Source: Candidatus Kaiserbacteria bacterium (GTDB lineage Bacteria > Patescibacteriota > Minisyncoccia > Phycocordibacterales > UBA2100). Taken from it: DNA of 64,000 bases. The position numbers and the translations under genes are program-made. The DNA is taken from NCBI GenBank assembly GCA_016217965.1, contig JACRFI010000016.1:1837-65836 (forward strand), written 5' to 3'. A model generated the notes under the pieces. The model had not been told where the DNA came from. It did no database searches and worked only from the letters and a program-made list of their open reading frames with translations. Positions 20,070 to 43,276 of the stretch are shown one piece after another (within the stretch, counting starts at the first letter, position 1; every line of letters starts with the position of its first letter).

Positions 20070-21677
20070 ATGGCTAAAAAGACGATCGCGGGCCTCATAA
20101 TCGGCTCGGCTGTGTTTTTCTCCTTCGGCATCAGTGTTTTGCCGGCGTCCGCTCTTACAATCGACGAGGTCCAGTCCCAGATACAATCGCTTTTGCAGCA
20201 GATATCGAGCCTTACCAATATCCTCAATTCTCTCAAAGGGCAGACCAACGCATCTATACAATCATCGGTGAATTCAGCTATCTCGATAGCCCCATCACAG
20301 CATCGAATCTGCAATGTTCTCGCAAGAAATCTTGCGCAGGGCACACAGGGCGATGATGTGATGAGTCTGCAAGAGTTTCTAAAAGCAGAAGGATATCTCT
20401 CCGCAAATGCGACTGGCTATTTTGGTCCAATGACAGCACAAGCTGTTGCAAAGTGGCAGGCGAAAGAAGGAGTATCCGCGGTCGGGCATTTTGGCCCGAT
20501 GTCACGCGAGCGCATCAAAATTTGGTGTGGAGGCGGAGGATGGGGTAACCAAGAGCGATTCTCGGCATCTCCCGCGCGCGGCTCGGCGCCACTAACGGTG
20601 GTTTTCGACACGTGGCTATCGGGTTTCAGGGTGCAGAGCATCTACTACACCATCGATTTTGGTGATGGAACGAGCGAAAGAGCTGCTGACTGCTATGCGC
20701 CGGCAGATGCGTGTTTGTCTCCTGGACAGAATAAGCATACGTACTCGCAAAATGGAACGTATACGGCGACCTTGAACAAGATCAGCGATCCATGCCAGGG
20801 AAATCCGGCATGCATGGCGCCGATATCTTCAGAAGTTGTCGCAAAACAGCAGATACATGTGGGGCAAACGGCATGTACAAAAGAATATGTACCGATGTGT
20901 GGCTCCAAACAGATCTACTGCATCACGACACCGTGCAATCCTATCCAGCAAACGTACAGCAATCGCTGCATGATGGAGGCAGATGGTGCATCGTTCTTGC
21001 ATGACGGCCAGTGCCGATCAGATTGGGAGGACCCCGCAAACGACCCGCGGTGCAAGGCTTGGTATGATGGGTGCAATAGTTGTTCGCGTTCTGCACCCGG
21101 ACAGCCTGCGATGTGTACGCTCCGTGCATGTATGTCCGACATGATGGCGAAACCATACTGCACTGCGTACTTCGACGGCACTACAAACAAACCGCCAACG
21201 ATCTCTGGCTTTTCGGGGCCTACGACGCTCAGAGTAAATGAAGCAGGCACATGGACGATCAATGCATCGGACCCAGAAAACGGGCAGCTGAGCTACCAAG
21301 TGTGGTGGGGAGATGAAGGCTACGCGCCGATGGCGAACATGGCTTCGTATGCGCGTGAGTTCACACAGACTACGACGTTCACGCATGCGTATGTAAACTC
21401 GGGTACCTACACCGTGTCGATCATTGTGCGCGACTCATCTGGACAGGAAGCGAAAACTTCCGCGACGGTGAACGTGAACACCGATGTCGCATGCATCGCG
21501 ATATACGATCCAGTCTGCGGCAGGCCCACAGGATGCGCAAACACGTGTCCTCCTGGGCAGTACTGCACTATGATCTGCCAACTGAAACGTCCGGAAACGT
21601 ATTCAAACCGCTGCGCGCTCAATGCAGCAGGAGCAGAATTTCTCTACAACGGCAACTGTGCGAGCACGACGTACTAG
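20070..21677 (+). CDS. secreted peptidoglycan-binding-domain protein with PKD-like and Kazal-like modules
   Basis: Signal peptide, coiled coil 'IQSLLQQISSLTNILNSLKG', PG_binding_1-like 'DDVMSLQEFLKAEGYL…GYFGPMTAQAVAKWQ', 'FGDGTS' PKD-like, Cys patterns 'C..PMCG…TYSNRC…C' Kazal-like (twice). Confidence 0.65.
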   Translation: MAKKTIAGLIIGSAVFFSFGISVLPASALTIDEVQSQIQSLLQQISSLTNILNSLKGQTNASIQSSVNSAISIAPSQHRICNVLARNLAQGTQGDDVMSLQEFLKAEGYLSANATGYFGPMTAQAVAKWQAKEGVSAVGHFGPMSRERIKIWCGGGGWGNQERFSASPARGSAPLTVVFDTWLSGFRVQSIYYTIDFGDGTSERAADCYAPADACLSPGQNKHTYSQNGTYTATLNKISDPCQGNPACMAPISSEVVAKQQIHVGQTACTKEYVPMCGSKQIYCITTPCNPIQQTYSNRCMMEADGASFLHDGQCRSDWEDPANDPRCKAWYDGCNSCSRSAPGQPAMCTLRACMSDMMAKPYCTAYFDGTTNKPPTISGFSGPTTLRVNEAGTWTINASDPENGQLSYQVWWGDEGYAPMANMASYAREFTQTTTFTHAYVNSGTYTVSIIVRDSSGQEAKTSATVNVNTDVACIAIYDPVCGRPTGCANTCPPGQYCTMICQLKRPETYSNRCALNAAGAEFLYNGNCASTTY

Positions 21678-22102
21678 ATAACGCCCCGGATCTTTTCGGC
21701 GATTTTTGCAGCTTCTCCCGCACCGTATGGCTTTCCTTTCCATAGCTCATGCCCGTCGTTCTGGAAGCGAGGCATGATGTGAACGTGCGCGTGAAAAACA
21801 ACTTGCCCTGCTCCGCTTTTATTGTTCATACCAAGATTTATTCCCGTTGGTTGGAGTGCTTTTTCTACTGCTAGCGAAATTTTCTTGACTGCCCCCATTA
21901 CGGCATTCCACTCCTCTTCGTCTATCTCGAACACATCGACAGCGTGTTTTTTGGGCACTACCAGCGTGTGTCCCGGATTTACGGGATTGATATCGAGAAA
22001 CGCAAACGTCTTTTCATCCTCGTATATCTTATTTGTGGGCAATTCTCCGCGAATTATTTTGCAAAAAAGGCAATCAGGCATGGAACTCAGTATAGGATAC
22101 AA
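21674..22102 (-). CDS. HIT-family (histidine triad) nucleotide hydrolase
   Basis: 'HAHVHIMPR' histidine triad, 'CLFCKI' N-terminus. Confidence 0.85.
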   Translation of the reverse strand: MYPILSSMPDCLFCKIIRGELPTNKIYEDEKTFAFLDINPVNPGHTLVVPKKHAVDVFEIDEEEWNAVMGAVKKISLAVEKALQPTGINLGMNNKSGAGQVVFHAHVHIMPRFQNDGHELWKGKPYGAGEAAKIAEKIRGVI

Positions 22103-23790
22103 TGGTCGGAATGGAAGTTTCAGATTTGGTGCGCACGTTGCTTGGGAAACGAGGCATCATCGAGAAAGATACCGTCGATAGATTTTTGGTCCCGGATTTT
22201 TTACGGGACACGCACGATCCGTTCCTGTTAGAAGGAATGGAACGTGCGGTTGCCAGGATTTTCGCGGTGATGGCTCAGAATGAACGCATCGCGATATACG
22301 CCGACTTCGATTGTGACGGAATTCCGGGTGCGGCACTTTTGTCGGATTTTTTTAGGAAAATTGGTTACGAGAATGTTCAAGTCTATATTCCGCATCGGGA
22401 TAGAGAAGGGTATGGATTCCACATTGCCGCGATAGAAAAACTGAAGCAGCAAGGTGTGTCTCTTATCATCACCATAGACGTTGGCACGACTGCGATTGAG
22501 GCTGTAAAACGAGCGAAAGAACTTGGTATCGATGTCATTGTCACCGACCATCATGAATTGAAAGACATTCTTCCTGACGCGGTTGCCGTAATTAACCCTA
22601 AGAACGGTACATATCCCTTTAAAGATCTCTGTGGAGCGGCAGTTGCATGGAAATTAGCATGTGCGCTCCTTGTTGAAGGCCGGAAGCGGGGCGATGCGCG
22701 ATTCACTTCAATTCCGGAGGGATGGGAAAAATGGCTTTTGGATATGGTTGCGATTGCGACCGTTGCAGATCTCGTGCCTCTCGTCGGGGAAAATAGGACT
22801 CTCGCGCACTACGGGCTTAAGGTTCTTCGTAAATCTCCGCGGCTTGGCATAAAGGCGCTCTGTGCGCGTGCACGAGTGCGGCAATTCGAAATTACGGAAG
22901 ACGATATCGCTTTTTCTTTTGCGCCGCGCATCAATGCGGCATCCCGCATGGATGAGCCGGAAGCTGCTTTCAGGTTGTTGACGACGACTGATGGTGACGA
23001 GGCCGAAAAATGCGCGGCGCATCTTGAAAGTTTAAATACGAAACGTCGAGGCGTCGTGGGAGCGGTTGTTCGGGAGGCAAGAAATCGCATCAAGGCACGT
23101 TTTTCGACAGGTGAAAAAGTCATCGTGCTTGGAGATACTGCGTGGAAACCGGCGCTCATGGGACTCGCGGCGAATTCCATCATGGGAGAACGTGGCGGGG
23201 TCGTCTGTATGTGGGGCAGGGACGCAAATGGGCGTCTAAAAGGTTCATGTCGTTCCGACGGCAGCCTATCTGTTGTCGAACTGTTCACGCGCGCCAGTGT
23301 TTCATTTGAGGAATTCGGCGGGCACCATGCATCCGGTGGATTTTCCGTCTCGCATGAATCGGTACACACGCTACACGAATCCCTATCGCGCGCAGCCGGA
23401 GATTTACCGCCCGCAAACGACATCGAAAAGAGGGATCCAGATGCAGAACTCTCCCTCTCGCGCGTAACGAACGTACTCCTCAAAGAACTTTCACAGATGG
23501 CGCCATTCGGGATCGGGAATCCGAAACCGCTTTTTCGTGTCCGAAACACGCGCATTACATTTGCACGCCAATTTGGGAAAGATATGAATCACACCGAAGT
23601 GACATTGGTATGTCCCGATTCTGGCGCGCAGTGCCGCGGATTCCAATTTTTCAAAACCCCAATGGATTTTACTGTTGCACCGTCTCCCGACACACTTGTC
23701 GACGTCTTGGCAACTGTGGAAAGAGACACATTTCGGGGGCCGGATCGCCTAGCGCTCAGGCTCTCTGATATTGTTGCGCCTCTGCAATAG
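22102..23790 (+). CDS. recJ: single-stranded-DNA-specific exonuclease RecJ (DHH family)
   Basis: DHH motifs 'DFDCDG', 'ITIDVG', 'VTDHHE', DHHA1-like C-terminal part. Confidence 0.85.
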   Translation: MVGMEVSDLVRTLLGKRGIIEKDTVDRFLVPDFLRDTHDPFLLEGMERAVARIFAVMAQNERIAIYADFDCDGIPGAALLSDFFRKIGYENVQVYIPHRDREGYGFHIAAIEKLKQQGVSLIITIDVGTTAIEAVKRAKELGIDVIVTDHHELKDILPDAVAVINPKNGTYPFKDLCGAAVAWKLACALLVEGRKRGDARFTSIPEGWEKWLLDMVAIATVADLVPLVGENRTLAHYGLKVLRKSPRLGIKALCARARVRQFEITEDDIAFSFAPRINAASRMDEPEAAFRLLTTTDGDEAEKCAAHLESLNTKRRGVVGAVVREARNRIKARFSTGEKVIVLGDTAWKPALMGLAANSIMGERGGVVCMWGRDANGRLKGSCRSDGSLSVVELFTRASVSFEEFGGHHASGGFSVSHESVHTLHESLSRAAGDLPPANDIEKRDPDAELSLSRVTNVLLKELSQMAPFGIGNPKPLFRVRNTRITFARQFGKDMNHTEVTLVCPDSGAQCRGFQFFKTPMDFTVAPSPDTLVDVLATVERDTFRGPDRLALRLSDIVAPLQ

Positions 23791-26831: not shown

Positions 26832-28352
26832 GTGACCGCGGCCTCTAACGGGATGCGTTCGCACTTATTTTGGGTGGCAGTACTTGGATTCTTAGTTGGT
26901 GTTTTTGTTCGTTCGTTTCTTCCGCTTGGTTGGTACGCAGGACTCTTCGTTTTGCTTCTCGCCGGAGCACTTTTTCTCCTTACTATCGCCACGCGCCGCA
27001 CCCCGGCGATTATCCTAGGAGTTGCACTTGCTTCCAGCAGTGTAGGGGTTGTTCGTATGCACGTTTCAACTCTCGTTCTCGCCCCGGAGTTGCATGCGCA
27101 ATTGGAGAAAAAAGTCACTCTGGAGGGATATATATTCGAAGAACCGGACGCACGCGAGAGTAACGCCCGCTTTTCTATCCGGGTCGATACATTGGTAACG
27201 AGAGCAGGAACAACAGCCATTTCTGCAGGAGTTCTCGCCATTGGCCCATTGCATGCGAGTGTCGAATACGGGGATCGCGTACGTGCGGAAGGAGAATTGC
27301 GGCTTCCCGAGAGTTTTGAATCCGGCACAGGGCGTGAATTCAATTACCCCGCATACCTTAAGAAAGATGGTATTGGATACGAGCTTGCGTTTGCCCAGAT
27401 AGAAAAAATCGGCGAAGGTAGACAGAACCCGATTAAAGCCGGTGCGATTTGGATAAAACAAATATATCTCGCGGGTATTGCACTTGCGCTGCCGGAGCCT
27501 CATGCAGGACTTGCTGGCGGTATCACTGCCGGAGACAAGCGTGCGCTCGGAGGAGAACTCACAGATATATTCCGGACCGTCGGGCTTATTCATATCATCG
27601 TTCTTTCCGGCTATAACATCATGGTCGTTATCGGTTTCATTGACCGCATATTCAGTCCACGGCCCGTCGTGTTGAAAGTTTTTGGCGGCGCGCACCGGTG
27701 GGTTCGATTCTCTCTTGGCATTCTAGTCGCTATATTTTTTGCGCTCATAACTGGGCTTGCCGCCGCATCGGTGCGCGCGGCGGCGATGGCAATCATTGCA
27801 ATATTGGGGAAAGCGAGCGGCCGAACGTATCTTGCGCTCCGCGCACTGGCTCTCGTTGCATTCGGAATGGTGTTGTGGAACCCGTGGATACTCGCGTTCG
27901 ATCCTGGCTTTCAACTCTCCATTATCGCAACGTGGGGAATCATCTCTATTTCGCCTCTTATCGCTTCGCGGCTAGGTTTCGTCACGGAAAGACTGGGGCT
28001 CAGAGAGATTGCTGCGACAACAATCGGTACGCAAATTGCCGTACTACCGCTTCTGCTATATCAAAGCGGCACGTTATCCCTCGTTTCGCTGCCTGCGAAC
28101 TTGCTCACGCTCATCGTGGTTCCTTGGGCGATGCTCGCCTCTTTTATTGCAGGGGTTTTTGGAATACTTGCTGGACCGCTTGCGCCTATCGTCGGCTTTC
28201 CCGCATACGTTTTGCTCTCGTACATTCTTTTCGTCGCCGACTTGGCAGCACGCCTGCCGTTCGCGTCAATCTCGGTGGGCATCGTTGGCTTCTGGGTGTT
28301 GGTCCTGTCCTATGCATTGATAGGTGCCGTGTTTGCGAAAAGAGAAAAGTAA
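26832..28352 (+). CDS. comEC: ComEC/Rec2 competence membrane channel domain (DUF4131 + Competence), no MBL domain
   Basis: Multi-TM, 'IIVLSGYNIMVV' competence-domain signature. Confidence 0.75.
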   Translation: MTAASNGMRSHLFWVAVLGFLVGVFVRSFLPLGWYAGLFVLLLAGALFLLTIATRRTPAIILGVALASSSVGVVRMHVSTLVLAPELHAQLEKKVTLEGYIFEEPDARESNARFSIRVDTLVTRAGTTAISAGVLAIGPLHASVEYGDRVRAEGELRLPESFESGTGREFNYPAYLKKDGIGYELAFAQIEKIGEGRQNPIKAGAIWIKQIYLAGIALALPEPHAGLAGGITAGDKRALGGELTDIFRTVGLIHIIVLSGYNIMVVIGFIDRIFSPRPVVLKVFGGAHRWVRFSLGILVAIFFALITGLAAASVRAAAMAIIAILGKASGRTYLALRALALVAFGMVLWNPWILAFDPGFQLSIIATWGIISISPLIASRLGFVTERLGLREIAATTIGTQIAVLPLLLYQSGTLSLVSLPANLLTLIVVPWAMLASFIAGVFGILAGPLAPIVGFPAYVLLSYILFVADLAARLPFASISVGIVGFWVLVLSYALIGAVFAKREK

Positions 28353-34819: not shown

Positions 34820-35875
34820 ATGAGCGATAGTAATCTCAGTCAAAGACAGGCTTCCATACTTGCCAGTATGGGACTTGATACAGACTATTCAGCAGAAAGC
34901 TTGGCGAACTTGTTCGACATTGCTCCTGCCCCAGCGACATTGCGCAGAGACATGCAAAAATTGGAATTACACGGCTACGTAACTCGGCGAGGAGAAAAAA
35001 GGGGAAGGAAATATGCAAAGACGGAACTTGGTGCCCTCTTGAGCCCCTTGGATGCACACGCGTACTTCCTCAAAGAAACAGATGTGCGCCGCGGATTAAA
35101 GACGTATCGTCACGGACTCTGGAATGCCGTACCTGAATCTCTTTTCACCACAGGTGAGCGAGCCGCATTCGCTGCTGCTACCGACATCTATCACGCGCGA
35201 TCGCGCGATATTTCCGAGGTCGTGCGTGCGAAGGAGCTTGAACGCTTCGTGATCGAGCTTTCGTGGAAATCTTCGAGGATCGAAGGCAATACGTATACGC
35301 TTCTTGATACCGAGCGCCTTCTGCGTGAGGGAGTGGAGGCACCCGGGCATGGGAAAGGCGAGGCTATGATGATTCTCAACCACAAGAAAGCGTTCCAGTA
35401 TATCTTGGAATCAAAAAATAAGCGTGAGTTTGTGAATAAGCATTTTGTCGAGGATGTGCATGGCATTCTTGTCGAGAATCTCGGCGTATCACGAGGATTC
35501 AGAAAGGGCGTTGTCGGGGTCACCGGCTCTTCGTATCGGCCTCTCGACATTCCCGCGCAACTGGAAGAAGAGACTGGCGTCTTGTGCCAGGCTGCGGCAC
35601 AGATCAAAGACGCGTATTCGCAAGCACTTCTCATGCTCGTTGGAATAAGTTATATACAGCCTTTTGAAGATGGCAATAAGCGCACCGCGCGACTCATTGC
35701 AAATGCGGTTCTCATTGCGCACGAGAAGGCGCCGCTCTCATATCGAAGCGTCGATGAAACGCTCTATCGCGAAAGTATGCTTACGTTCTACGAACAACTC
35801 TCCATCGTCCCAATGAAAAAGATATTCTCTGATCAATATCTTTTCGCCTGCGAACAGTATCTGAAAAGTTCGTAA
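34820..35875 (+). CDS. Fic/Doc-family protein with N-terminal wHTH-like region and degenerate motif [12 protein letters not shown]
   Basis: Fic/Doc core '[20 protein letters not shown]' (canonical HxFx[DE]GN[GK]R; His replaced by Gln). Confidence 0.7.
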
Positions 35876-35933: not shown

Positions 35934-36081
35934 TGCCAAAGTGCCGCTTTCGGAGCTTTTCGGATTCACCACACAGCTTCGCTCCGCGACCGAAGGCCGC
36001 GCCGTCCCGAACCTTGAGTTCTCGCACTACGTCGTAGTACCACGTAATGTGCAGGAGGAGATAATTGCGTCTCGTAAGTAA
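35934..36081 (+). repeat. fusA 3'-end remnant copy 1 (encodes …[47 protein letters not shown])
   Basis: About 56 nt identical to 34601-34656 of resident fusA then diverged; ends with in-frame stop. Confidence 0.85.
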
Positions 36082-36129
36082 TTCCCAAATACCTGTCCCC
36101 ACCGCGGCCGCCCTGAGCGAAGTCGAAGG

Positions 36130-38412
36130 GTGGCCGCGTGTCATGATGTGTGCATGAACAAAAGCGTTGTAGCGTTTGTGGCAGTCGTCGCGTCGTTTTT
36201 CGTCCCCTTTTTCGCCTCGGCACAAGTTCCTACACCGTCTGCCGGAGGACCGTATTCTGGCGGCGTAAATCCAACCATCAGTTCCCAAAGTGGTACTTCC
36301 GTCGGCGTGTCTATCTCTTCTGTCGGGTCGAACACGTCTATTTCACAATCTTTTGTATGTCCGACGTTGATTCGCACCCTTGTCCGCGGTTCTCGAGGCG
36401 GTGATGTCGCTGGAGTACAAAATTTTCTCATCGCCCAAAAAGATTTGGCGGCAGGCAACAACACCGGCTACTTCGGTACTCTCACTGAAACGGCAGTGAA
36501 ATCGTTCCAGCGAAGAAATAATATAGTCTCAAGTGGCACACCAGGAACGACGGGGTATGGCCTCGTCGGCGCAAAGACACGTGCGGCGATCCAAAGAGCA
36601 TGTGCTGGATCAATGGCCGCACCAACCAATTCGTACTCGTCTCCATCACTAGGTTCGAATTCAGAAATAGACAAACTCCTCGCGCAGATTCAATCGCTTC
36701 AGGCGCAAATGAACCAGGAAGCTAACAAGAGCACTGGAAATTCTTCGGGGACAACGTATGTGCAAGGCTCGTACGCACAAACAAACGCGCCTGTGTATTC
36801 GGAAACGAATTATTACAATCAGGGATCATATACACCCACAGACGACCAGGTCCGACCAGCTTCACCACCGTACTATGGGGTTAACTATTTCGCATCTGGA
36901 TACGGGAATTTCCTCACGGACCAGTTCGATGTGTCAAGGACGCGCATCCAGAACGACATCGGACTCATGCAAAGCATGGGAATCAACGTCGTACGTATAA
37001 GCGTCGCCGGTTTCGCCAACGGGCTTGTGCCATGGACCTACAACCAACCGCGGGGACGAGAATATTTCGACACAGCAAATTGGGAGCTTGCCGGAAACAA
37101 CCTTGCAAAGTTGATCAAGCAATTTAAAGCAGCCCGCATAAAAGTTATTGTGGATTTTGTATCGATAAATTATTTCTTGTTCGCACCGAGCGCGACTGAA
37201 CTCGCCATCCACCCAGTAAGCCAGGCATGCAAAGACGGGTTTGCGTCCGGTTCGATGGGCGTATGGTGGCAGTGCCGGTATCCGAACAGATGGGATGATT
37301 TTGTATGGGACTATACGACCTGGGTGAACGGCATCGTGTGGCTCGTCGAGAATGATTCCGAGGCAGCGTCAAACGTCCTCTACTACGATCCGATCGGAGA
37401 ACTCCAATTTTCGGACCGGACAGGCACCGACATGAAGGCATTCGCGAACATCATTATCGCAAACAACAACATTCCGGCAGGGAAACTTGGCATATCGGTA
37501 CTTAATCCTGAATCGACCACTCCCGCCTCAATCGCGCTTCCGAACCTTAAAACTCTTCTCGATGCGGCAGGCAAAAAACTTTCGTTCATTGATGTGCATT
37601 GTTATCCTGGTATCTCTTGTGCGTTTGGTAGCCAGACTGTTGCCCAGTGGTTTACGGACGCATATACAAATGCGCGGAGATCATTTCCCGCATCTGAAAC
37701 AAAGTTTGTCGTGGGAGAATGGGGCTCCAATTATGATGGTGGAAAAGGCTTGGGCCAAGCGAATTACGATGCACAAGTTGTCAATTGGGCGAAATCCAAC
37801 GGCGATGTCACGGCGCTCGTGCACTGGAATCTCTATGATGACAATCCGAGTTACAACGAATATCACATCGGAGTTGCGCCGACGGCCGGCGTTGCGCAAG
37901 GTACACGAAATACCTATATGGTCCTCGGGACGATGCGCGGGGACTTAATCGATGGTGATTTTGAAAGTGGTATTTCGAAGTGGTTTAACGGCGGCAGTGG
38001 GTCGAACCTAAAGCAGATGCCCATCGAAGCAGTGACGGGTTCGTACTATGGACGCATGCAGGTGACGGCACCCGGACAAAATTGGTTCTGCACGCCAAAT
38101 TTCGTGCTCGCCAATGGCACGCATGTCGCGACCGGCGGTTTCATTCGGACAGCACTTGCAAATGTGACGCTTTCGACCCGATATTTCGATTCAAATTGGA
38201 AACTGATCGGGCAAGATGACATCACGCTTACACAACCAGCGGCTTGGCAGTGGCGGCAAATACAAGAGCAATCGCTGTCAAAACGCGCTACTACGTGGAC
38301 GGGTGCCCCTTATGCTGCACAGGTTTGCTTCGTTTTGAACGGTCCAGCTGGCACATCCGCTACAAATCCGCAGTATCTTGATTTGGATTCGATCACGGTG
38401 CACGATTATTAG
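36130..38412 (+). CDS. secreted peptidoglycan-binding-domain protein with GH5-like TIM-barrel glycoside hydrolase domain
   Basis: Probable true start ATG 36154 (MNKSVVAF…, signal peptide); PG_binding_1-like 'GDVAGVQNFLIAQKDL…GYFGTLTETAVKSFQ'; 'GINVVRISV' and 'VVGEWGSNYDGG' GH5-like strands. Confidence 0.6.
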   Translation: MAACHDVCMNKSVVAFVAVVASFFVPFFASAQVPTPSAGGPYSGGVNPTISSQSGTSVGVSISSVGSNTSISQSFVCPTLIRTLVRGSRGGDVAGVQNFLIAQKDLAAGNNTGYFGTLTETAVKSFQRRNNIVSSGTPGTTGYGLVGAKTRAAIQRACAGSMAAPTNSYSSPSLGSNSEIDKLLAQIQSLQAQMNQEANKSTGNSSGTTYVQGSYAQTNAPVYSETNYYNQGSYTPTDDQVRPASPPYYGVNYFASGYGNFLTDQFDVSRTRIQNDIGLMQSMGINVVRISVAGFANGLVPWTYNQPRGREYFDTANWELAGNNLAKLIKQFKAARIKVIVDFVSINYFLFAPSATELAIHPVSQACKDGFASGSMGVWWQCRYPNRWDDFVWDYTTWVNGIVWLVENDSEAASNVLYYDPIGELQFSDRTGTDMKAFANIIIANNNIPAGKLGISVLNPESTTPASIALPNLKTLLDAAGKKLSFIDVHCYPGISCAFGSQTVAQWFTDAYTNARRSFPASETKFVVGEWGSNYDGGKGLGQANYDAQVVNWAKSNGDVTALVHWNLYDDNPSYNEYHIGVAPTAGVAQGTRNTYMVLGTMRGDLIDGDFESGISKWFNGGSGSNLKQMPIEAVTGSYYGRMQVTAPGQNWFCTPNFVLANGTHVATGGFIRTALANVTLSTRYFDSNWKLIGQDDITLTQPAAWQWRQIQEQSLSKRATTWTGAPYAAQVCFVLNGPAGTSATNPQYLDLDSITVHDY

Positions 38413-38419
38413 TCTTCGC

Positions 38420-38485
38420 TTCGTTCTCGCACTATGCGATTGTCCCAAAAACGTTGCAGATGAAGTGATCGCCTCGCGCAAATAG
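38420..38485 (+). repeat. fusA 3'-end remnant copy 2 (…FSHYAIVPKNVADEVIASRK*, 1-nt frameshift)
   Basis: Matches last about 22 codons of fusA. Confidence 0.75.
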
Positions 38486-38554
38486 AAAACGTCACATGGC
38501 ATAGCCTGAACAATGTCCACAGGCGTCTCCGCTGCCCCATTGAAAAAAGCAAGA

Positions 38555-38562
38555 GGGGGGGG
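38555..38562 (+). repeat. G8 homopolymer tract 13-20 nt upstream of ATG 38575
   Basis: 'aagaGGGGGGGGtagcattgggacATG'. Confidence 0.8.
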
Positions 38563-38574
38563 TAGCATTGGGAC

Positions 38575-39858
38575 ATGAAAAACATCCCACGGGTTGGTGT
38601 GCTTATCAGTGCTATTCTCCTTGCGCCTGCGTTCGCGGCAGCTCAAGACGCGCTCGGAAGTCCTATGCCTTCAATGGGTCCGGGAATAATTTGCCAAGCG
38701 GAAATGAATGCCGCCATTGCGGTCGGTCTGCAAAATAGGGAAAAGGCCGAGGTAAAGGCGCTCGATGCGTGCCTAAAAAATAACGCGTCGACACTACCCA
38801 TGCCCTCAATGACCTCTGAGGCAAGCGACTCTGGCAGCGTAACATCGGGTATTACCCCGAACACGAATGGCAGCGGCGCTTCATGCCCCAAAATTCTTCG
38901 TACGCTTTTCGTCGGCAGCACTGGGGATGACGTGGTGGCATTGCAGGTATTCCTTATTGCGCAAGGCGATCTTGCCGCAGGCAATACCACCGGCTACTTT
39001 GGCGTTCTTACGGAAGCGGCGGTAAAAGCATTTCAGTCGGCGCATGGTATAGAGAACGCTGGCATGGTGGGTCCGAAGACTCGCGCGGCGATCGCGCAAA
39101 TATGCGGCGGTACCGTTTCCACGAACACCCCTTCCTCTAGCGGCGGTTCAACGGGCAATCAATCGCTCATTGATTCGCTTCTACAGCAGATAAAAGTTCT
39201 GCAGGAGCAGATAAAGAATATCTCAGGGAACACAAACACAAACACAAATACGAATACAACGTCAACCAACACCAATACGACATCAACCAATATCAACACA
39301 ACTTCTTCGACTGCCGCGACTCCGCAAACTTTCGACTACATGGCGTCATTCCATTCCGGCCCGCAATCTGGGGGCGACCAGAGCCTGGCGCCGTACTTCG
39401 GCCAGAACCCGTCGGGACCATGGTGGTATGGGTATGCGGATTCCGTAACCGGCGCGACGAAGTTCATGTCGTGGGACGGGACCGTCCCCTCATGGATCGG
39501 CGGCTATGGAGGATTCCCGCGTCTCTACAACTGGGGTGGGTACGTCTACGGCTCGTCGGCAATAATCGTTTGGGTGGCACCGCGTGCGGGTACCGTCACG
39601 ATAGCCGGAAGTGTCTCGCGACAAGGGATTGGCGGGGCTGATGCGACGTGCTCAGGCGCGACGCCGATCGTCGCGTATGTCTATCAGGATGGAAAGGCTT
39701 TGTGGTCGGCGAGCATGATGCCGGGAGATGCTGGCAAAGCGTATTCACTCTCCGGCACAGTGAATCAGGGCAGCAACGTGTCGTTCATCATGCAGCCGGC
39801 AGGTGCAAGCCCGGCCTGCAACATCGTGTACTGGAATCCGACTGTCGTGCTTAAATAA
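38575..39858 (+). CDS. secreted peptidoglycan-binding-domain protein with (TN)n linker
   Basis: Signal peptide 'MKNIPRVGVLISAILLAPAFAAA', PG_binding_1-like 'DDVVALQVFLIAQGDL…GYFGVLTEAAVKAFQ', 'NTNTNTNTNTTSTNTNTTSTN' linker, C-terminal beta domain. Confidence 0.65.
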   Translation: MKNIPRVGVLISAILLAPAFAAAQDALGSPMPSMGPGIICQAEMNAAIAVGLQNREKAEVKALDACLKNNASTLPMPSMTSEASDSGSVTSGITPNTNGSGASCPKILRTLFVGSTGDDVVALQVFLIAQGDLAAGNTTGYFGVLTEAAVKAFQSAHGIENAGMVGPKTRAAIAQICGGTVSTNTPSSSGGSTGNQSLIDSLLQQIKVLQEQIKNISGNTNTNTNTNTTSTNTNTTSTNINTTSSTAATPQTFDYMASFHSGPQSGGDQSLAPYFGQNPSGPWWYGYADSVTGATKFMSWDGTVPSWIGGYGGFPRLYNWGGYVYGSSAIIVWVAPRAGTVTIAGSVSRQGIGGADATCSGATPIVAYVYQDGKALWSASMMPGDAGKAYSLSGTVNQGSNVSFIMQPAGASPACNIVYWNPTVVLK

Positions 39859-39879
39859 AAAGTTCGCATACCCACTAAC

Positions 39880-39945
39880 CCAAAGTTTGATGCTGGGTGC
39901 TGAATTTGGAATTCTCTCACTACGCTATCGTCCCCAGAAATGCCT
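39880..39945 (+). repeat. fusA 3'-end remnant copy 3 (internally deleted; …EFSHYAIVPRN…)
   Basis: 'ccaaagt' junction plus 'gaattctctcactacgctatcgtccccagaaatg'. Confidence 0.65.
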
Positions 39946-40044
39946 GCCCCGTTAGAACTTTAGTTTCTAATGGGGTTGCTAACTAAGTGATAGGCGCGAG
40001 GACGCTCGTATTGACGAATTGGCTAATTGGGCTACTATTGGCGC

Positions 40045-40314
40045 ATGAGCAAGATAACCATGCCTACATTTGCGGCGAGCGAGGCGAAGAATAACTTCGG
40101 GAGGCTTATCGATGCCGCGCAGCGCTCGCCTGTCGCGATCAAGCGGCGCGGCCGCTCCGTTGCGTTCGTCATCTCGCCGTCAGACATGGAGACGATTGAG
40201 GATCTATGGCTGGGTATGCAAGCGCATAAAGCGATGCGGCGAGGTAAATTCTTGAGCGCTGAGGAAACGAAGAAATATATGGACGGTGTGCTGAAGCACC
40301 ATGCTCGACGTTAG
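40045..40314 (+). CDS. Phd/YefM-family antitoxin
   Basis: 'MPTFAASEAKNNFGRLIDAAQRSPVAIKRRGRSVAFVISPSDMETIEDL' YefM fold signature; overlaps toxin gene by 14 nt. Confidence 0.7.
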   Translation: MSKITMPTFAASEAKNNFGRLIDAAQRSPVAIKRRGRSVAFVISPSDMETIEDLWLGMQAHKAMRRGKFLSAEETKKYMDGVLKHHARR

Positions 40315-40576
40315 GATACTCGACGAGGCGCAGGAAATCCTGGATGCGCTATCAGAAAAACATCGGCATCAAATTGTCAAAAAGATCGCACTGCTCGCGC
40401 AGCAGCCATATCACCCGCGTTCGAAACAGTTGGAAGGATATGCGCCGCTTCGACGCATGTCTTCTGGAGAATATCGCATTGTGTATTTCATTGAGGGCAA
40501 AGTTCTGAAAGTTCCGCTTATCGATAAGCGAGGGGATAACAAAGTATACCGACGACTTAAGCAGTTATTCGGATGA
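40301..40576 (+). CDS. RelE/ParE-family toxin
   Basis: 91 aa, 'PLRRMSSGEYRIVYFIEGKVLKV' RelE/ParE C-terminal core. Confidence 0.75.
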   Translation: MLDVRILDEAQEILDALSEKHRHQIVKKIALLAQQPYHPRSKQLEGYAPLRRMSSGEYRIVYFIEGKVLKVPLIDKRGDNKVYRRLKQLFG

Positions 40577-40605
40577 TAAATTGCTTTGAACGTCGTTATC
40601 GAAAA

Positions 40606-40773
40606 AAAGCCTGCTCTCCGAAATGTTCGGATTTACAACACAATTACGGTCGTTGACGGAGGGAAGATCTGTCCCAAACCTCGAGTTTTCTCACTACCCC
40701 AGTAGGTGATTGTACTCAATCAGCTGTTGTCCCTCGAAATGTTGCGGATGAAGTTATTGCGGCGAGGAAATAG
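40606..40773 (+). repeat. fusA 3'-end remnant copy 4 (…[26 protein letters not shown]-[28-bp insert]-VVPRNVADEVIAARK*)
   Basis: Translated similarity to EF-G C-terminus ending in in-frame TAG. Confidence 0.8.
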
Positions 40774-40785
40774 AAAAATCCTCTC

Positions 40786-40836
40786 CACACACTGCCGCGC
40801 TTAATGCGCGGCAGTGTGTCATGATTACCGCATTAC
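40786..40836 (+). promoter_or_regulatory. 14-bp perfect hairpin (CACACACTGCCGCGC-ttaat-GCGCGGCAGTGTGT) followed by GTGTCATGATTACCGCATTAC box
   Basis: Same architecture at 20008-20048, 36103-36147, 42595-42636 upstream of paralogous genes. Confidence 0.55.
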
Positions 40837-42577
40837 ACATCACCCATCTCTATTCATGCTAAAAAAAGTCGCATTCAGCAGCATCGGATTACTCCTCCTA
40901 ATCTCTCCGTTCGCAGCATCTGCAGATCTCCTTAGCGACCTCCAAGCGCAGATACAAGCACTTCTTGCGCAGATTGCGGCATTGCAGGGGACATCAATGA
41001 TCCCTGACTCGGACACTCCGACAGAGCATCCGACATCATCATGCCCACATCTGACAGTCGCTCTCCAACGGGGCAGTCGCGATGCAAATACGGGAGGACA
41101 AGTCTCAGAACTTCAAATATTTCTCGCAAATCGTTACGGTCTCAACGACGATGATATCGTGAGCGGATTCTTCGGCGCAATGACAGAGAAATACGTCATC
41201 AAATTCCAACAAGAACAAGGACTTCCCGTGTTCGGCCTCGTAGGTCCTATGACCAGGGCGAAGATCGCAGAGGTGTGCGGGGGCATCATCTCTCCGTCGA
41301 ATGCCGCATCCGAGGCAAACCCGGTACTTGTCTTTCCGCCTCGTAGAATCACGAGCGACACAAACAGCTTCTCCAACAGCTTCTCCGCGTCGCCGATGTC
41401 AGGAAGTGCGCCACTCACCGTAACGTTCTCCATGACTCAATACGGGGCGAGATCCCTACTGATAGATTTCGGAGACGGTGCGGTACAAAAAACCGACGAC
41501 TCTTGCCTTGTCGGCCCGGATTGTAAAGAACCGTACGTACGTTCGCACACTTACATCTCACCAGGCACGTATATTGTCCGACTCTCAAATGCATCCGTCT
41601 GCGACGCGCCACCCGGGGTACTGTGTTCACTCGCCCCCGATCAGATTGTCGGTACGGTGACGATCACCGTCACGGACGGGACCCGCAAATGTGGTGTAAA
41701 TTCATTTAAAGTAGTGAACCAATGTGGCACAAGCGAATACAGAAATGCGTACTTCCAGTGTTATGACGGGTATGAGCAGACCATCGGTGAGAGCAGTTCG
41801 TGCAAACCGCCCTCGGTATGGGAAGAATATGCCCGCGATGCGTGTGCCAAACATTGTTCGAACACTGCAAGCAGTATTACCGTCACATCACCCAATGGCG
41901 GAGAGCAGATCGAAATCGGACAGCCACATAAAATTACTTGGAAACAAGTCGGGCTCTCGAATGTATCCATTGCACTGTACAGAGACGATCAAGTGAAACA
42001 GTGGATTGCGCGAGATATTAGCTTGGAGAAAGATGCCGTTGACACATATGCGTACGTCTGGACACCGGCGCAAACCGACACTAACATTAATGCGTTCACA
42101 ATCTACATCACCGGCCCAAAAGCCGACGGCACAGGCTCCATCGACGACAAAAGTGACGCTCCATTCAGTTTTGCCAGTGATGCAAGCGGAGTGTGTCAAG
42201 TTGTTGACCTCTACGCCACGCAAGTCCCGGGGTATGTCTACTCTGATCTCTTTATGGTCGTGCGCGGACTGCCGACAGGATCTGGTCAGGTTAGTATCAC
42301 CGGAGCAGATTCATGGAACAATTTGATGTTCTCTTCCCAGGGGCTTGATTCTGCGGGAAATCTCCTCTTGCAAGCAAATCAAACGATTAATTCGACGGGT
42401 GTCTCGTATATTCTTGAGCGCGAGAATGCCATCACGCCAATTTCCTACGGCGGTGTATCAATATCGTGTCAATCTATTTCTGGCACGACCGCATCCGCAC
42501 AGAGTACGCAATTAGCATCAGCACTCGTTGCACTCGAATCAGCCCTCAAAGCAATGCTGAAATTGTTGGGGCAATAG
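40814..42577 (+). CDS. secreted peptidoglycan-binding-domain protein with PKD-like domains
   Basis: Probable true start ATG 40856 (MLKKVAFSS… signal peptide); coiled coil; 'GQVSELQIFLANRYGL…GFFGAMTEKYVIKFQ'; 'FGDGAVQKTDDSC' PKD-like. Confidence 0.65.
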   Translation: MCHDYRITHHPSLFMLKKVAFSSIGLLLLISPFAASADLLSDLQAQIQALLAQIAALQGTSMIPDSDTPTEHPTSSCPHLTVALQRGSRDANTGGQVSELQIFLANRYGLNDDDIVSGFFGAMTEKYVIKFQQEQGLPVFGLVGPMTRAKIAEVCGGIISPSNAASEANPVLVFPPRRITSDTNSFSNSFSASPMSGSAPLTVTFSMTQYGARSLLIDFGDGAVQKTDDSCLVGPDCKEPYVRSHTYISPGTYIVRLSNASVCDAPPGVLCSLAPDQIVGTVTITVTDGTRKCGVNSFKVVNQCGTSEYRNAYFQCYDGYEQTIGESSSCKPPSVWEEYARDACAKHCSNTASSITVTSPNGGEQIEIGQPHKITWKQVGLSNVSIALYRDDQVKQWIARDISLEKDAVDTYAYVWTPAQTDTNINAFTIYITGPKADGTGSIDDKSDAPFSFASDASGVCQVVDLYATQVPGYVYSDLFMVVRGLPTGSGQVSITGADSWNNLMFSSQGLDSAGNLLLQANQTINSTGVSYILERENAITPISYGGVSISCQSISGTTASAQSTQLASALVALESALKAMLKLLGQ

Positions 42578-42649
42578 TTTCAATGGGATCTATCCACACA
42601 AAGCTGCCTCGATCGAGGCGGCTTTGTGTCATGATGAGGGTATAACGGC

Positions 42650-43276
42650 ATGGCTTCTTTCATCATGTTTAAAAAGGTAGCGTGTGGCCTCGGATTATTT
42701 CTGCTCGTTACCCCGCTCGCTGCATCAGCGGCTCCGGTGGACGAACTCTACCTGGAATCACAATTGCACGTGTCAGAGATACTCGCTCTTCAAGTACGTT
42801 TGAACGCATTATTGACGCAGCTTGCGATATTGCAGGGACAACAGACCAACCAAGTGCCACTGCATCCAACCACGTGCCCCAAGCTCACTGTTTCTTTTTC
42901 ATTCGGTGCGTACGGCAATGATGTCTTAGAACTCCAGCGATATTTGGTCACCAACGGCTATTTAACCGCAGATTCAGTCACAGGGTTTTTTGGCGATACA
43001 ACCGATGCCGCTGTCAGGCGTTTTCAACTGGACCGAGGCATTGTGCATGGAGGAACGACGCGAACGACCGGGATCGGGATAGTGGGCCCTGCGACGAGGT
43101 TGGCGATCGCGACAAGTTGCAGTTATGGAACAGACGGCAATTACGCAACATCAACCATCGCCGCTTCGACATCGCCATCAACTACGAATACGGATCTAGT
43201 GTCGCAACTCACGATCATCTCGCAACAATTGCAGATATTGCGCGAACAAGTTCTTAACCTGCAGGCGCAGCATTGA
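42650..43276 (+). CDS. secreted peptidoglycan-binding-domain protein (short paralog)
   Basis: Signal peptide, 'NDVLELQRYLVTNGYL…GFFGDTTDAAVRRFQ', C-terminal coiled coil; RBS 'gaggg' 9 nt upstream. Confidence 0.65.
   Translation: MASFIMFKKVACGLGLFLLVTPLAASAAPVDELYLESQLHVSEILALQVRLNALLTQLAILQGQQTNQVPLHPTTCPKLTVSFSFGAYGNDVLELQRYLVTNGYLTADSVTGFFGDTTDAAVRRFQLDRGIVHGGTTRTTGIGIVGPATRLAIATSCSYGTDGNYATSTIAASTSPSTTNTDLVSQLTIISQQLQILREQVLNLQAQH

Follow-up and report, generated by a model that had tools for sequence, protein, structure and literature searches.

Secreted peptidoglycan-binding scaffold proteins with swapped C-terminal modules, and decayed fusA 3' ends, in a fusA-tuf island of a Kaiserbacterium

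Results

A secreted scaffold common to five proteins

According to its protein names at NCBI, where the source label is 'Candidatus Kaiserbacteria', the stretch of DNA analysed here (64 kb, referred to as the window) belongs to a CPR bacterium. The five open reading frames listed there (P1 to P5) were present at the positions given and are real, but two of them probably start further downstream, at 36154 (MNKS...) in P2 and at 40856 (MLKK...) in P4, as in the gene calls of NCBI and Logan.

20070-21677, + strand: P1, 535 aa, outside the fusA island, between an NTP-transferase gene and recJ; signal peptide (aa 1-28), heptad helix (31-55), Cys-bracketed PG_binding_1 (81-153), PKD (164-264), Kazal-like module (269-315; P1 residue Lys271), pacifastin-like module (328-364), PKD (375-469), Kazal-like module with insert (475-530; P1 residue Ala477)
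36154-38412, + strand: P2, 752 aa from MNKS (frame opens at 36130); signal peptide, S/T-rich linker, PG_binding_1 (36358-36603), heptad helix (36664-36723), predicted clan GH-A (beta/alpha)8 barrel (36874-37821), C-terminal beta domain (37924-38409)
38575-39858, + strand: P3, 427 aa; signal peptide, linker, PG_binding_1 (38884-39105), heptad helix (39166-39222), (TN)n linker (39229-39309), rare jelly-roll domain of about 150 aa (39412-39855)
40856-42577, + strand: P4, 573 aa from MLKK (frame opens at 40814); signal peptide, heptad helix (40928-40987), PG_binding_1 (41042-41278), PKD-like (41381-41671), six-Cys module (41690-41857), Ig-like (41873-42175), region of about 130 aa with an amphipathic helix at its end
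42650-43276, + strand: P5, 208 aa; signal peptide, heptad helix (42779-42835), PG_binding_1 (42875-43120), S/T linker, second heptad helix (43196-43264)

All five proteins exceeded the gathering cut-off of 23 bits for PG_binding_1 (PF01471; P1 41.7, P2 34.4, P3 50.5, P4 37.3 and P5 41.2 bits). In BLASTP the module region joined all 10 protein pairs, at 27-47% identity and E values of 1e-9 to 1e-30, and no further protein of the window was connected with P1-P5. Additionally, the six-frame translation of the window, searched with an HMM of the five modules, gave exactly five matches (118-131 bits; next best 6.9). Each protein possesses a Sec-type signal peptide with n-, h- and c-regions and A-x-A at its end, a Q-rich helix of three heptads with I/L at the a and d positions, and Cys residues flanking the module on both sides. 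The helix precedes the module in P1, P4 and P5, follows it in P2 and P3, and is found on both sides in P5. Between the payloads no similarity was detected by BLASTP. Sequence comparison therefore confirmed the proposed paralogous family, in which a secreted peptidoglycan-binding scaffold is combined with swapped C-terminal modules; the annotated signal peptides, Q-rich helix and PG_binding_1-like module were recovered in five of five proteins, and it is the module, not just the signal peptides, that connects them.

C-terminal modules of P2 to P5

A GH5-like hydrolase had been listed among the payloads, and for P2 this assignment holds at the level of clan GH-A. A barrel of this clan was recovered in a predicted structure of low confidence (mean pLDDT 49, alignment of four sequences), but no GH family HMM matched P2. 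The Glu codon of strand beta4 starts at 37399 within 'IGE', where relatives read 'INE' or 'NNE', and that of beta7 at 37717 within 'GEWG'. Since the Asn of the 'NE' motif, present in three P2 homologues, is replaced by Gly, P2 may be weakly active or inactive. With regard to the biochemical activities that we infer for the payloads, P2 would act as a clan GH-A beta-glycanase of the retaining type, equipped with a beta-sandwich module, and its substrates would be host or environmental glycans and not murein.

In P3 the annotated (TN)n linker is present, but the protein also has a genuine C-terminal domain of its own, and it might represent a lectin-like jelly roll atop a flexible TN stalk. P4 showed sub-threshold Pfam scores for PKD (16.2 bits), Kre9_KNH (15.5-19.4) and Big_7 (19.9); among its 193 homologues, all with a named source are Parcubacteria. 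It is possibly an adhesin-like stalk of the PKD/Ig type. PG_binding_1 was the sole Pfam match of P5, which is indeed the member without payload that had been announced and consists of the anchor only; this bare two-helix anchor could serve as partner or spacer for P1-P4.

Distribution of the scaffold

The scaffold recurs in more than 100 Parcubacteria proteins. The family was sampled by a P4-seeded search and is biased toward P4-like proteins; PKD/Ig-like modules dominate in this sample. In 101 related proteins carrying the module, it starts at a median residue of 67, preceded by a signal-peptide-like N-terminus in 94 and by a heptad helix in 62 of them, and the Cys bracket is found in 94. All relatives with a named source are labelled Kaiserbacteria, Parcubacteria, Paceibacterota, Minisyncoccia or Patescibacteria. 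Other payloads on the same scaffold include a cupredoxin (L012), an FKBP foldase (FKBP_C, P0017) and lectin domains. No peptidoglycan-hydrolase family was recognised in the precomputed Pfam lists of 120 listed relatives, and no peptidoglycan hydrolase was found in nine scaffold proteins from the fusA site of other genomes or among the payloads of P1-P5. The modules share 50-73% identity with their closest relative in another genome versus 35-57% within the window. Because the closest relative of each module sits in another genome, domain shuffling of the scaffold is, judged from these identities, old.

The fusA-tuf island

As annotated, four of the five genes lie within an island between fusA (end 34740) and tuf (start 48959).

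32599-34740, + strand: fusA, intact, EF-G of 713 aa (Pfam EF-G domains)
34820-35875, + strand: Fic/DOC protein with N-terminal HTH (Pfam Fic 43.2 bits), the cassette nearest fusA
35935-36078, + strand: fusA 3'-end remnant 1, between Fic and P2; 48 codons including stop
36104-36147, + strand: GC-rich hairpin, then GTGTCATGAT; the element stops 6 nt upstream of the P2 start codon
38424-38482, + strand: remnant 2, between P2 and P3; about 20 codons, frameshifted (FSHYAIVPK / NVADEVIASRK, stop)
39897-39941, + strand: remnant 3, between P3 and the Phd/ParE pair; 15 codons (VLNLEFSHYAIVPRN)
40027-40576, + strand: Phd/YefM antitoxin and ParE toxin, one cassette (Pfam PhdYeFM 38.1, ParE 25.7 bits; Logan gene calls)
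40596-40770, + strand: remnant 4, between ParE and P4; about 55 codons, ending in VPRNVADEVIAARK and stop, broken by a 25-nt insert and a frameshift
about 40786-40825 (before P4) and about 42595-42635 (before P5): equivalent hairpin and GTGTCATGAT elements
43337-48680: distal, more conserved part, with homologues in the relatives L002, L082 and L147
43337-44857: secreted Cys/Thr-rich protein
44842-45405: membrane protein of 187 aa, weak cupredoxin match
45412-46938, - strand: fusion of D,D-carboxypeptidase and L,D-transpeptidase
47073-48680: Ricin-lectin protein
48959-50158, + strand: tuf (EF-Tu, Pfam), distal border

The new observation at this locus is that the 14-kb insert between fusA and tuf contains four decayed fusA 3' ends, one between successive cassettes. 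They repeat the end of the live gene (about 34595-34740; direct repeat D3). Remnant 1 is 85% (amino acids) and 88% (nucleotides) identical to the live end, and its last 70 nt or so are closer to the fusA end of L002 than to the window's own. Remnants 2, 3 and 4 are likewise closer to the fusA end of L082. For the hairpin elements, three exact 10-mers were counted against 0.14 expected, and their occurrence upstream of three paralogues is unique to the window's genome; in L147 the live fusA is followed by a similar hairpin and GCTATGAT. Over 35972-44416 the sequence agrees completely (100% identity) with an independent Logan assembly, and the junction of fusA, Fic and remnant 1 is supported by the window's own assembly only. 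Eleven ORFs were called in the island, and an integrase family was matched by none of them. The window also encodes ComEC and the type IV pilus proteins PilB and PilC.

The site is variable in the clade. Relatives with 86-87% identical EF-G carry four, one or no non-orthologous scaffold genes there, and in L004 two scaffold genes are separated by a fusA scar of the same kind. The gap between fusA and tuf is 0.1-6.6 kb in the clade versus about 60-600 bp in most more distant bacteria.

Discussion

Origin of the cluster

That fusA remnants separate the cassettes and that relatives carry zero, one or four non-orthologous scaffold genes suggests stepwise capture of cassettes at fusA. The incoming DNA, made up of a fusA 3' end with a hairpin and the gene downstream, would have recombined with the fusA already present, and each capture would have shifted the old fusA end downstream and left it as a scar. 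As read from the scars, the route may have been one-sided homologous (homology-facilitated illegitimate) or Campbell-type recombination.

A rival origin of the four clustered genes, by tandem duplication in place together with shuffling of domains, is very improbable; the fusA-like fragments would then be incidental duplication debris or assembly chimeras. Such an origin would account for four paralogues inside 7 kb on one strand and for the upstream hairpin element that three of them share, and a clearly recent local duplication did occur in the island, where the C-terminal 361 aa of the Ricin-lectin protein are 82% identical to the secreted Cys/Thr-rich protein. However, the modules of the window are less similar to each other than to their relatives elsewhere, the payloads lack any mutual similarity, and three of the remnants are nearer to the fusA end of another lineage. 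The exact match of the Logan contig and the scar in L004 also speak against this origin.

Site of action of the proteins

Taken together, the data are somewhat better than evenly in favour of surface proteins that are anchored in the producer's own wall, with payloads directed outward and genes captured stepwise at fusA. The anchor would consist of a cleavable signal peptide, the short Q-rich heptad helix and the three-helix PG_binding_1 module closed by a disulfide. We infer that the mature proteins bind non-covalently to the peptidoglycan of the Kaiserbacterium, which would sit in an envelope without outer membrane so that the C-terminal modules point outward. Since the island encodes the D,D-carboxypeptidase/L,D-transpeptidase fusion, the organism most probably has its own murein. 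Oligomerisation via the helix is a guess, given a length of just three heptads or so. As a set, the five proteins might equip the cell surface of an epibiont or scavenger for contact, feeding and protection.

The initial annotation had instead proposed a toolkit for attacking or remodelling host peptidoglycan. That PG_binding_1 targets the host wall, either tethering an episymbiont or delivering effectors against host murein, is rather unlikely. The domain is genuine in all five proteins, characterised examples are usually paired with murein-active enzymes (e.g. the SleB matches and the endolysin 5nm7), CPR bacteria are often epibionts, and adhesin-like payloads and a glycanase are compatible with host contact. 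However, in the five proteins, the listed relatives and the nine locus proteins no payload that would lyse or modify murein was recognised, and the proposed attack found no support; because the payloads of the scaffold lack a peptidoglycan hydrolase, the proteins are seen as own-wall surface proteins and not as weapons. The cupredoxin and FKBP payloads make little sense at a host wall and would be sensible only beside the producer's own membrane, which favours anchoring in the own wall, and in about 100 proteins the anchor is N-terminal, directly after the signal peptide. In Gram-negative hosts, moreover, the peptidoglycan is not exposed, and the methanogen hosts of certain Paceibacteria lack peptidoglycan. 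In these parasites of methanogens, exoproteins with PG-binding domains are highly expressed (PMC10936435), which also argues against a host-wall target, although host attachment was proposed by the authors of that study as well. PKD and lectin payloads are compatible with host contact whichever wall is bound.

The anchor and helix could also tether murein to an S-layer-like outer protein layer, with payloads that are mainly Ig/PKD spacers. The composition of P5 (anchor and two helices only), the prevalence of PKD/Ig-like modules, the conserved heptad helices and the very high expression of similar proteins in relatives (PMC10936435) would agree with such structural envelope parts. We nevertheless regard this as very unlikely, as modules of P1 and P2 show conserved signatures of catalytic or reactive sites and the gene content of the locus turns over between close relatives, which one would not expect of a core envelope structure. 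Own-wall anchoring with outward payloads fits better than attack on a host wall.

Comparison of the P1 modules with known protease inhibitors

The annotated PKD-like domains are well supported in P1 (PKD_4 46.3, PKD 39.7 bits). The annotation as Kazal-like applies to module 1, which exceeded the Kazal_1 cut-off of 21 bits in the protein (21.6) and in isolation (24.7), whereas module 2 stayed below it and was recovered with a family profile only. The middle Cys module is instead pacifastin-like, below the Pfam threshold of 27.9 (20.6 bits, in isolation 25.7; E 9e-6), with PDB matches including LCMI-II; the PDB matches of the P1 modules included Kazal and pacifastin inhibitors. P1 may therefore be considered a putative wall-tethered, multi-headed canonical serine-protease inhibitor with a Kazal (Lys), a pacifastin-like and a Kazal (Ala) head, in which the PKD domains would act as spacers.

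The Kazal-like module also occurs in at least four further Parcubacteria proteins. With a profile of nine such modules, 53 of 57 PDB matches were Kazal inhibitors, with Galleria silk protease inhibitor 2 at the top (E 1e-7). In the alignment, ovomucoid residues 16-26 correspond to the CT-x-EY-x-PVCG loop, and the position of residue 18, the P1 residue (reactive site) of ovomucoid, is occupied by K, A, M or R in different copies. In contrast to canonical Kazal domains, the Kazal-like modules lack the first and the fifth Cys and contain an insertion.

A conserved secreted anchor with variable C-terminal modules

Five genes of the window encode secreted proteins (P1 to P5) in which one scaffold, consisting of a signal peptide, a Gln-rich heptad helix and a Cys-bracketed PG_binding_1 module, is combined with a variable C-terminal part, the payload:

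20070-21677 (+), P1: anchor with PKD domains and small Cys-rich modules
36154-38412 (+), P2: anchor with a putative, very divergent glycanase
38575-39858 (+), P3: anchor with a repeat domain
40856-42577 (+), P4: anchor with a PKD-like region and further modules
42650-43276 (+), P5: anchor without payload

The ORFs were located where the initial annotation had described them, the true starts of two of them likely being 36154 (P2) and 40856 (P4). An HMM built from the five modules gave exactly five matches in the six-frame translation (118–131 bits), the next best scoring 6.9 bits. PG_binding_1 (PF01471) had been proposed for all five proteins, and every score in the Pfam profile scan exceeded the gathering cut-off of 23 bits (41.7, 34.4, 50.5, 37.3 and 41.2 bits for P1 to P5). 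The module region links all ten pairs of the five proteins (BLASTP, 27–47% identity), so that the postulated paralogy indeed extends beyond the signal peptides; no BLASTP connection of P1 to P5 to the remaining window proteins was detected.

The N-termini are typical Sec signal peptides with basic residues, 12–18 hydrophobic residues and an A-x-A site. Each protein possesses a short helix with I/L at the heptad a/d positions and Gln-rich flanks, which precedes the module in P1, P4 and P5 and follows it in P2 and P3, P5 carrying it on both sides; Cys residues flank the module on both sides in all five. In the AF2 model of P2, the PG_binding_1 region comprises helices 68-78, 83-94 and 112-121, with a pLDDT below 60 there. 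Identical proteins are labelled by NCBI as 'peptidoglycan-binding protein [Candidatus Kaiserbacteria bacterium]'. These observations demonstrate that the secreted anchor is conserved and that the C-terminal modules are interchangeable. Judged by their sequences, P1 to P5 would belong to the non-covalently wall-anchored surface-protein paralogues, which are defined by a signal peptide, a shared wall-binding module, a variable domain and the presence of several paralogues.

A homology search with P4 yielded 193 proteins, and all matches with a named source were from Kaiserbacteria, Parcubacteria, Paceibacterota, Minisyncoccia or Patescibacteria. In this family sample, which is biased towards P4-like proteins due to the query, the module was present in 101 of 124 proteins with a median start at residue 67. 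A signal-peptide-like N-terminus and the Cys bracket each occurred in 94 of these 101 carriers, and the heptad helix preceded the module in 62. The precomputed Pfam lists of the relatives include PKD, Kre9_KNH-type Ig, SPRY, SdrD_B, Big_13, I-set and FKBP_C; no peptidoglycan-hydrolase family was recognised in the lists of these relatives. Each window module is closer to its nearest relative in another genome (50–73% identity) than to the other modules of the window (35–57%), and the paralogues are therefore old. On the basis of these identities, the view that the cluster arose by recent tandem duplication was rejected.

Inhibitor-like modules of protein P1

Protein P1 is encoded outside the insert between fusA and tuf (referred to as the island), between an NTP-transferase gene and recJ. 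It contains two PKD domains above the Pfam cut-off (PKD_4, 46.3 bits; PKD, 39.7 bits) and three small Cys-rich modules. Assessed as Kazal inhibitors (MEROPS I1; PF00050/PF07648), module 1 reached 21.6 bits with Kazal_1 in the whole protein and 24.7 bits in isolation (cut-off 21) as well as 10.5 bits with Kazal_2, and the second Kazal-like module stayed below the cut-off (13.0 and 12.5 bits). The module type was also found in four other family members, with the consensus CT-x-EY-x-PVCG(K)P...C...TY-x-N-x-C...G-A...G-x-C. The reactive-site loops of the window modules, CTKEYVPMCG (module 1) and CIAIYDPVCG (second Kazal-like module), correspond to the canonical loop C-T-P1-E-Y-x-P-x-C-G, in which P1 denotes the reactive-site residue and not the protein. 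Kazal inhibitors accounted for 53 of the 57 PDB matches of a profile of nine Parcubacteria Kazal-like modules, the best match being Galleria silk protease inhibitor 2 (E 1e-7). In the alignment with ovomucoid, positions 1-11 of the profile correspond to residues 16-26, of which residue 18 is the P1 residue. The aligned position is Lys in module 1, Ala in the second Kazal-like module and A, M or R in homologues; in canonical inhibitors, variation confined to the contact residue is typical.

Only equivalents of Cys II, III, IV and VI of the canonical six-Cys pattern (I-V, II-IV, III-VI) were found. An insertion of 10–45 residues splits the domain; in eight of the nine copies, among them both window modules, it contributes a further Cys pair. 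Since the first and fifth canonical Cys are absent, the domains are atypical, and they resemble atypical Kazal domains with two canonical disulfides. By score, the initial annotation of Kazal-like Cys knots agrees with module 1, the second Kazal-like module staying below the cut-off; the reactive loop is present in both, the six-Cys pattern in neither. With Galleria mellonella silk protease inhibitor 2 (PDB 2M5X/4HGU) and the ovomucoid third domain, the modules have the CT-P1-EY-x-PVCG loop and the GKTY-x-N-x-C...G-x-C core in common, and as in Kazal inhibitors the P1 residue is hypervariable between copies. Unlike these two inhibitors, they lack Cys I and Cys V, are split by an insertion and are embedded in a wall-anchored multidomain bacterial protein, for which inhibition is a prediction. 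The ten best matches of a literature search included no paper containing both Kazal and CPR terms.

The middle Cys module, flanked by the two Kazal-like ones, scored 25.7 bits (E 9e-6) with Pacifastin (PF05375, MEROPS I19; cut-off 27.9 bits) and matched LCMI-II in the PDB (E about 0.01). Of the pattern C-x-C-N-x-C-x-C-x-G-x-C-T-x3-C it keeps C-N-x-C and C-T-x3-C, Cys4 being replaced by Arg, and its sequence therefore qualifies it as pacifastin-like only. Pacifastin-like domains in CPR and Myxobacteria have been found by structural screening (Sci Rep 2026, PMC13388995). The window module is likewise located in a CPR genome, but it is detectable by sequence, has lost Cys4 and stands between Kazal-like modules on a PG anchor.

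Payloads of P2, P3 and P4

For P2, a GH5-like hydrolase had been suggested. The isolated domain did not match the GH5 model (PF00150) even at E ≤ 10, no match of P2 to glycosidase HMMs was obtained, and PDB sequence and profile searches matched the anchor only. A word-indexed search of 5.8 billion proteins revealed three homologues, which conserve the motifs YYD-x-(I/V/N)-NE, HCYP and GE(W/F)G. In the window protein, Gly replaces the Asn of the NE acid/base motif that is kept in all three homologues (codons 37396-37401), which suggests a possible loss or change of activity. In the AF2 model, which is of low confidence (pLDDT 49), residues 241-555 form eight strands alternating with helices, E416 following beta4 and E522 lying on beta7. 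This arrangement would agree with clan GH-A (4/7 superfamily), in which a (beta/alpha)8 barrel carries its acid/base Glu after beta4 and its nucleophile Glu on beta7.

Owing to the missing glycoside hydrolase HMM match, the conserved motifs and this low-confidence barrel with its two Glu residues, P2 is regarded as a very divergent putative glycanase of clan GH-A with a predicted GH5-like fold, and not as a GH5 member by sequence. The part of the earlier claim that stands is thus the modelled fold, not the family. GH5 beta-mannosidases and mannanases (1UUQ, 4LYP, 1RH9) share with P2 the (beta/alpha)8 architecture, the Glu positions, the H-x-Y motif of beta6 and the Trp of beta8; P2 is only 11–14% identical to them and, unlike them, has no GH5 HMM match. 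The C-terminal 160 residues of P2 are predicted to be beta-rich, and no domain family could be assigned to them.

The payload of P3 had no homologue in the word-indexed search, and an exhaustive HMMER search detected 57 distant relatives. It represents an uncharacterised repeat domain of about 150 aa without a Pfam model (relatives P0126-P0181); large proteins contain up to four to six copies of it, together with Big_7, fn3, RHS and DUF4185. Its consensus is FS..QG..W.Y...W.G...HPG..DAVR.W.AP..G.V.I.G...CGDGV...I.KN...LW...GD.I.F.VN...CD.T.W.P.I.

The PKD-like region of P4 scored 16.2 and 14.9 bits, below the PKD cut-off (PF00801/PF18911), although BLAST showed it to be homologous to the PKD region of protein P1; the proposed PKD-like domains are hence confirmed by score for P1 and sub-threshold in P4. 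In addition, P4 contains a six-Cys module, a sub-threshold Ig-like module and a C-terminus without assignment. Scanned against Pfam and NCBIfam, neither the whole proteins nor the isolated payloads yielded a glycosidase, CBM or lytic domain for P2, P3 and the P4 C-terminus. Among the window payloads, no family-level sequence match to CBM51 or jelly-roll carbohydrate-binding modules was found.

Remnants of fusA within the island

The str operon of the window comprises rpsL, rpsG, fusA (32599-34740) and tuf (48959-50158), and fusA and tuf are separated by 14.2 kb with eleven genes. These encode Fic, P2, P3, a Phd/ParE pair, P4, P5, two further secreted or membrane proteins, a D,D-carboxypeptidase/L,D-transpeptidase fusion on the minus strand and a Ricin-lectin protein. 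A direct-repeat scan showed that the final 133 nt of fusA recur at 35936-36068. Protein- and DNA-level searches identified the fusA 3' end in four decayed copies, each of which separates two cassettes, i.e. the gene or genes between successive remnants.

Decayed copies of the fusA 3' end in the island
Remnant 1: 35935-36078; 48 codons, 85% aa identity; after Fic
Remnant 2: 38424-38482; about 20 codons, frameshifted; after P2
Remnant 3: 39897-39941; 15 codons; after P3
Remnant 4: 40596-40770; about 55 codons, interrupted; after Phd/ParE

Remnants 2, 3 and 4 are nearer to the fusA end of a close relative (locus L082) than to the window's own fusA, and the distal half of remnant 1 resembles the fusA end of another (L002). 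An assembly chimera was rejected as the source of the array, as an independent Logan contig (run SRR12113407) reproduces 35972-44416 with 100% identity; the junction of fusA, Fic and remnant 1 is supported by a single assembly.

At three places, a GC-rich hairpin precedes an exact copy of the 10-mer GTGTCATGAT: at about 36104-36147 and 40786-40825, after remnants 1 and 4, and at about 42595-42635, before P5. The element ends 6 to 30 nt upstream of the P2, P4 and P5 start codons, and the three occurrences of GTGTCATGAT compare with 0.14 expected. Across 160 related loci this 10-mer was not conserved, the one match, in L088, being unrelated; it is therefore characteristic of the window genome rather than of the clade. 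In a third close relative (L147), a similar hairpin with GCTATGAT behind it lies after the live fusA. The element of the window could represent a terminator-like hairpin combined with an extended -10, or a common 5' leader; consensus scans for promoters and terminators did not exceed the shuffled expectation. We infer a repeated unit of fusA end, hairpin, possible extended -10 and next gene.

Further features were observed in and around the island. Between the fusA stop and the HTH-Fic start, a perfect 15-bp inverted repeat (34781-34813, CATTATCGCTCAT/ATGAGCGATAATG) could be an operator or terminator. Two secreted Cys/Thr-rich proteins (43337-44857 and 47073-48680) are 82% identical over their C-terminal 361 aa, both ending in ...RLPGWLEL, and differ in their N-termini (a domain of unknown type and a Ricin-type lectin, respectively). 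This pair is a second, much more recent module swap in the island; homologues are present in L002, L082 and L147. A 187-aa island protein (44842-45405) showed a weak plastocyanin-like match (TIGR02656, E 0.005). Beyond tuf, in the place expected for the S10 operon, lie genes for an rve-type transposase/integrase and an AbiEii toxin (51479-53646), representing further mobile or defence material around translation genes.

The fusA site in relatives

Among the loci retrieved with EF-G, fusA and tuf are mostly about 60–600 bp apart in distant bacteria; in Kaiserbacteria-like genomes the gap ranges from 0.1 to 6.6 kb. Scaffold genes lie directly 3' of fusA in L002, L004 (two genes), L012, L030 and L021, and in L004 a 47-codon fusA remnant (15231-15371) separates the two. 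At this site, the three closest relatives (EF-G 86–87% identical) differ in their number of scaffold genes, with four in L082, one in L002 and no such gene in L147; none is an orthologue of a window gene. The distal island genes are conserved. The content of the site varies in L002, L082, L147, L012 and L030, and fusA-tuf is demonstrated to be a hypervariable locus with fusA-end scars. Payloads at the site in relatives include Laminin_G_3, PKD, Kre9_KNH, DUF4214, TIG and cupredoxin; in L012, a cupredoxin/plastocyanin domain is found on the same PG anchor directly after fusA (3572-5650). The rpsG-fusA junction varies in the clade as well, measuring 0.5 kb in the window (32119-32598, a 105-aa ORF without assignment) and 2–7 kb in some relatives (L005, L009, L016, L025), so that more than one str-operon junction accepts inserts.

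A possible capture of cassettes at the fusA 3' end

Tentatively, and with more doubt than confidence, the fusA 3' end in Kaiserbacteria-type CPR may be considered an integrase-free capture site, at which single-gene cassettes from the DNA of relatives are stacked, as in a functional integron analogue diversifying the surface repertoire. Incoming DNA sharing the fusA end would recombine with the resident fusA, either by homology-facilitated illegitimate recombination or by Campbell-type integration, and each capture would leave a fusA-end scar and a hairpin-plus-promoter unit. The captured cassettes would mostly encode wall-anchored surface proteins, beside toxin-antitoxin and Fic genes, and Fic, nearest to fusA, would be the newest. 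From the scars only we infer this recombination route. If the proposal is true, the cell-surface repertoire, and perhaps the host range, is diversified inside one of the most highly transcribed operons.

Genes of the window that look like DNA-uptake and pilus machinery are relevant to this route. Within 7518-15411 they encode a type IV pilus ATPase (PilB-like) and a platform protein (PilC-like), after which come two proteins sharing the N-terminal approximately 66 aa (13230-13862 and 13879-15411); ComEC is encoded at 26832-28352.

Tandem island accretion at the 3' ends of tRNA or other conserved genes and homology-facilitated illegitimate recombination in transformable bacteria are both known. 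As in tandem accretion, decaying copies of the target's 3' end separate the inserts, and the site is conserved in relatives with differing content; four remnants in the window and one in L004 document this. Unlike in tandem accretion, no integrase family was matched among the eleven ORFs between fusA and tuf, the nearest rve-type transposase lying beyond tuf (51479-52726), no tRNA is present within the window, and no att/attC site was recognisable in the island; an adjacent integrase with defined att/attC sites, as in site-specific islands and integrons, was thus not found. Furthermore, the target is fusA in the str operon, and the cassettes are single genes, mostly for surface proteins.

Own wall or host wall

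The anchor probably holds P1 to P5 on the bacterium's own murein, from where the payloads would act outward as protease inhibitor, glycanase, lectin or adhesin-like stalk, a reading that we favour slightly. It is suggested by the cupredoxin and FKBP payloads that this scaffold carries in other proteins, by the location of the anchor at the N-terminus, by the murein-maturation enzyme of the organism encoded in the island, and by the strong expression of such proteins in Paceibacteria living on methanogens, which lack peptidoglycan. Binding to the host wall, as assumed initially, appears less likely, and the toolkit for attacking or remodelling host peptidoglycan was not borne out, as murein-lytic payloads are absent from P1 to P5, the relatives listed and the scaffold proteins at the fusA site. 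Both readings would be reconciled if the proteins acted as a bridge, anchored in the bacterium's own wall and contacting host glycans through the payload.

Significance and comparison with known systems

CPR/Patescibacteria constitute a large share of bacterial diversity, and to our knowledge it is largely unknown how they retain surface proteins and contact their hosts. For the many Parcubacteria proteins annotated as 'peptidoglycan-binding proteins', the locus provides a concrete, testable architecture, a generic wall anchor with interchangeable modules. New in this study are the dissection of the scaffold, the fusA-end scar array, the atypical Kazal and pacifastin-like modules predicted on a wall anchor, the very divergent putative GH-A enzyme and an undescribed jelly-roll family. 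Candidates for experiments are the wall-tethered Kazal/pacifastin inhibitor with its predicted Lys P1 residue, the divergent clan GH-A glycanase and the jelly-roll family. The fusA-end scars suggest a route for repertoire turnover between close relatives without enzymes of mobile elements, which is relevant to the evolution of host range and to gene flow in organisms believed to depend on DNA uptake.

PG-binding-domain exoproteins as such are already known in Paceibacteria; in Ca. Yanofskyibacterium / Minisyncoccus, extracellular proteins of this type are highly expressed (Kuroda et al. 2024, PMC10936435). They belong to the same bacterial class, combine a secreted PG-binding domain with Ig-like or PKD folds, and action at the cell surface was proposed for them as well. 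They were described by predicted folds and expression only, with host attachment assumed, and without Kazal/pacifastin or glycosidase payloads, an analysis of paralogues or a link to fusA (PMC10936435).

SleB, phage endolysins (5NM7) and Zn D-Ala-D-Ala carboxypeptidase share the Pfam domain PG_binding_1 with the window proteins, but pair it with a murein hydrolase, which is found neither in P1 to P5 nor in the relatives examined.

In kind, the family resembles the non-covalently wall-anchored paralogues of Gram-positive bacteria, such as the Cwp proteins of Clostridioides difficile (CWB2), SLH-domain exoenzymes and S-layer proteins, and the pneumococcal choline-binding proteins. In these families, too, one wall-binding module is common to many secreted paralogues with partly clustered genes, and the functional domain (enzyme, adhesin or inhibitor) differs from paralogue to paralogue. 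Unlike the triplicated CWB2 and SLH modules or the choline-binding repeats, the window anchor is a single disulfide-bracketed PG_binding_1 module with a short heptad helix, and its ligand is presumably murein itself and not a secondary polymer.
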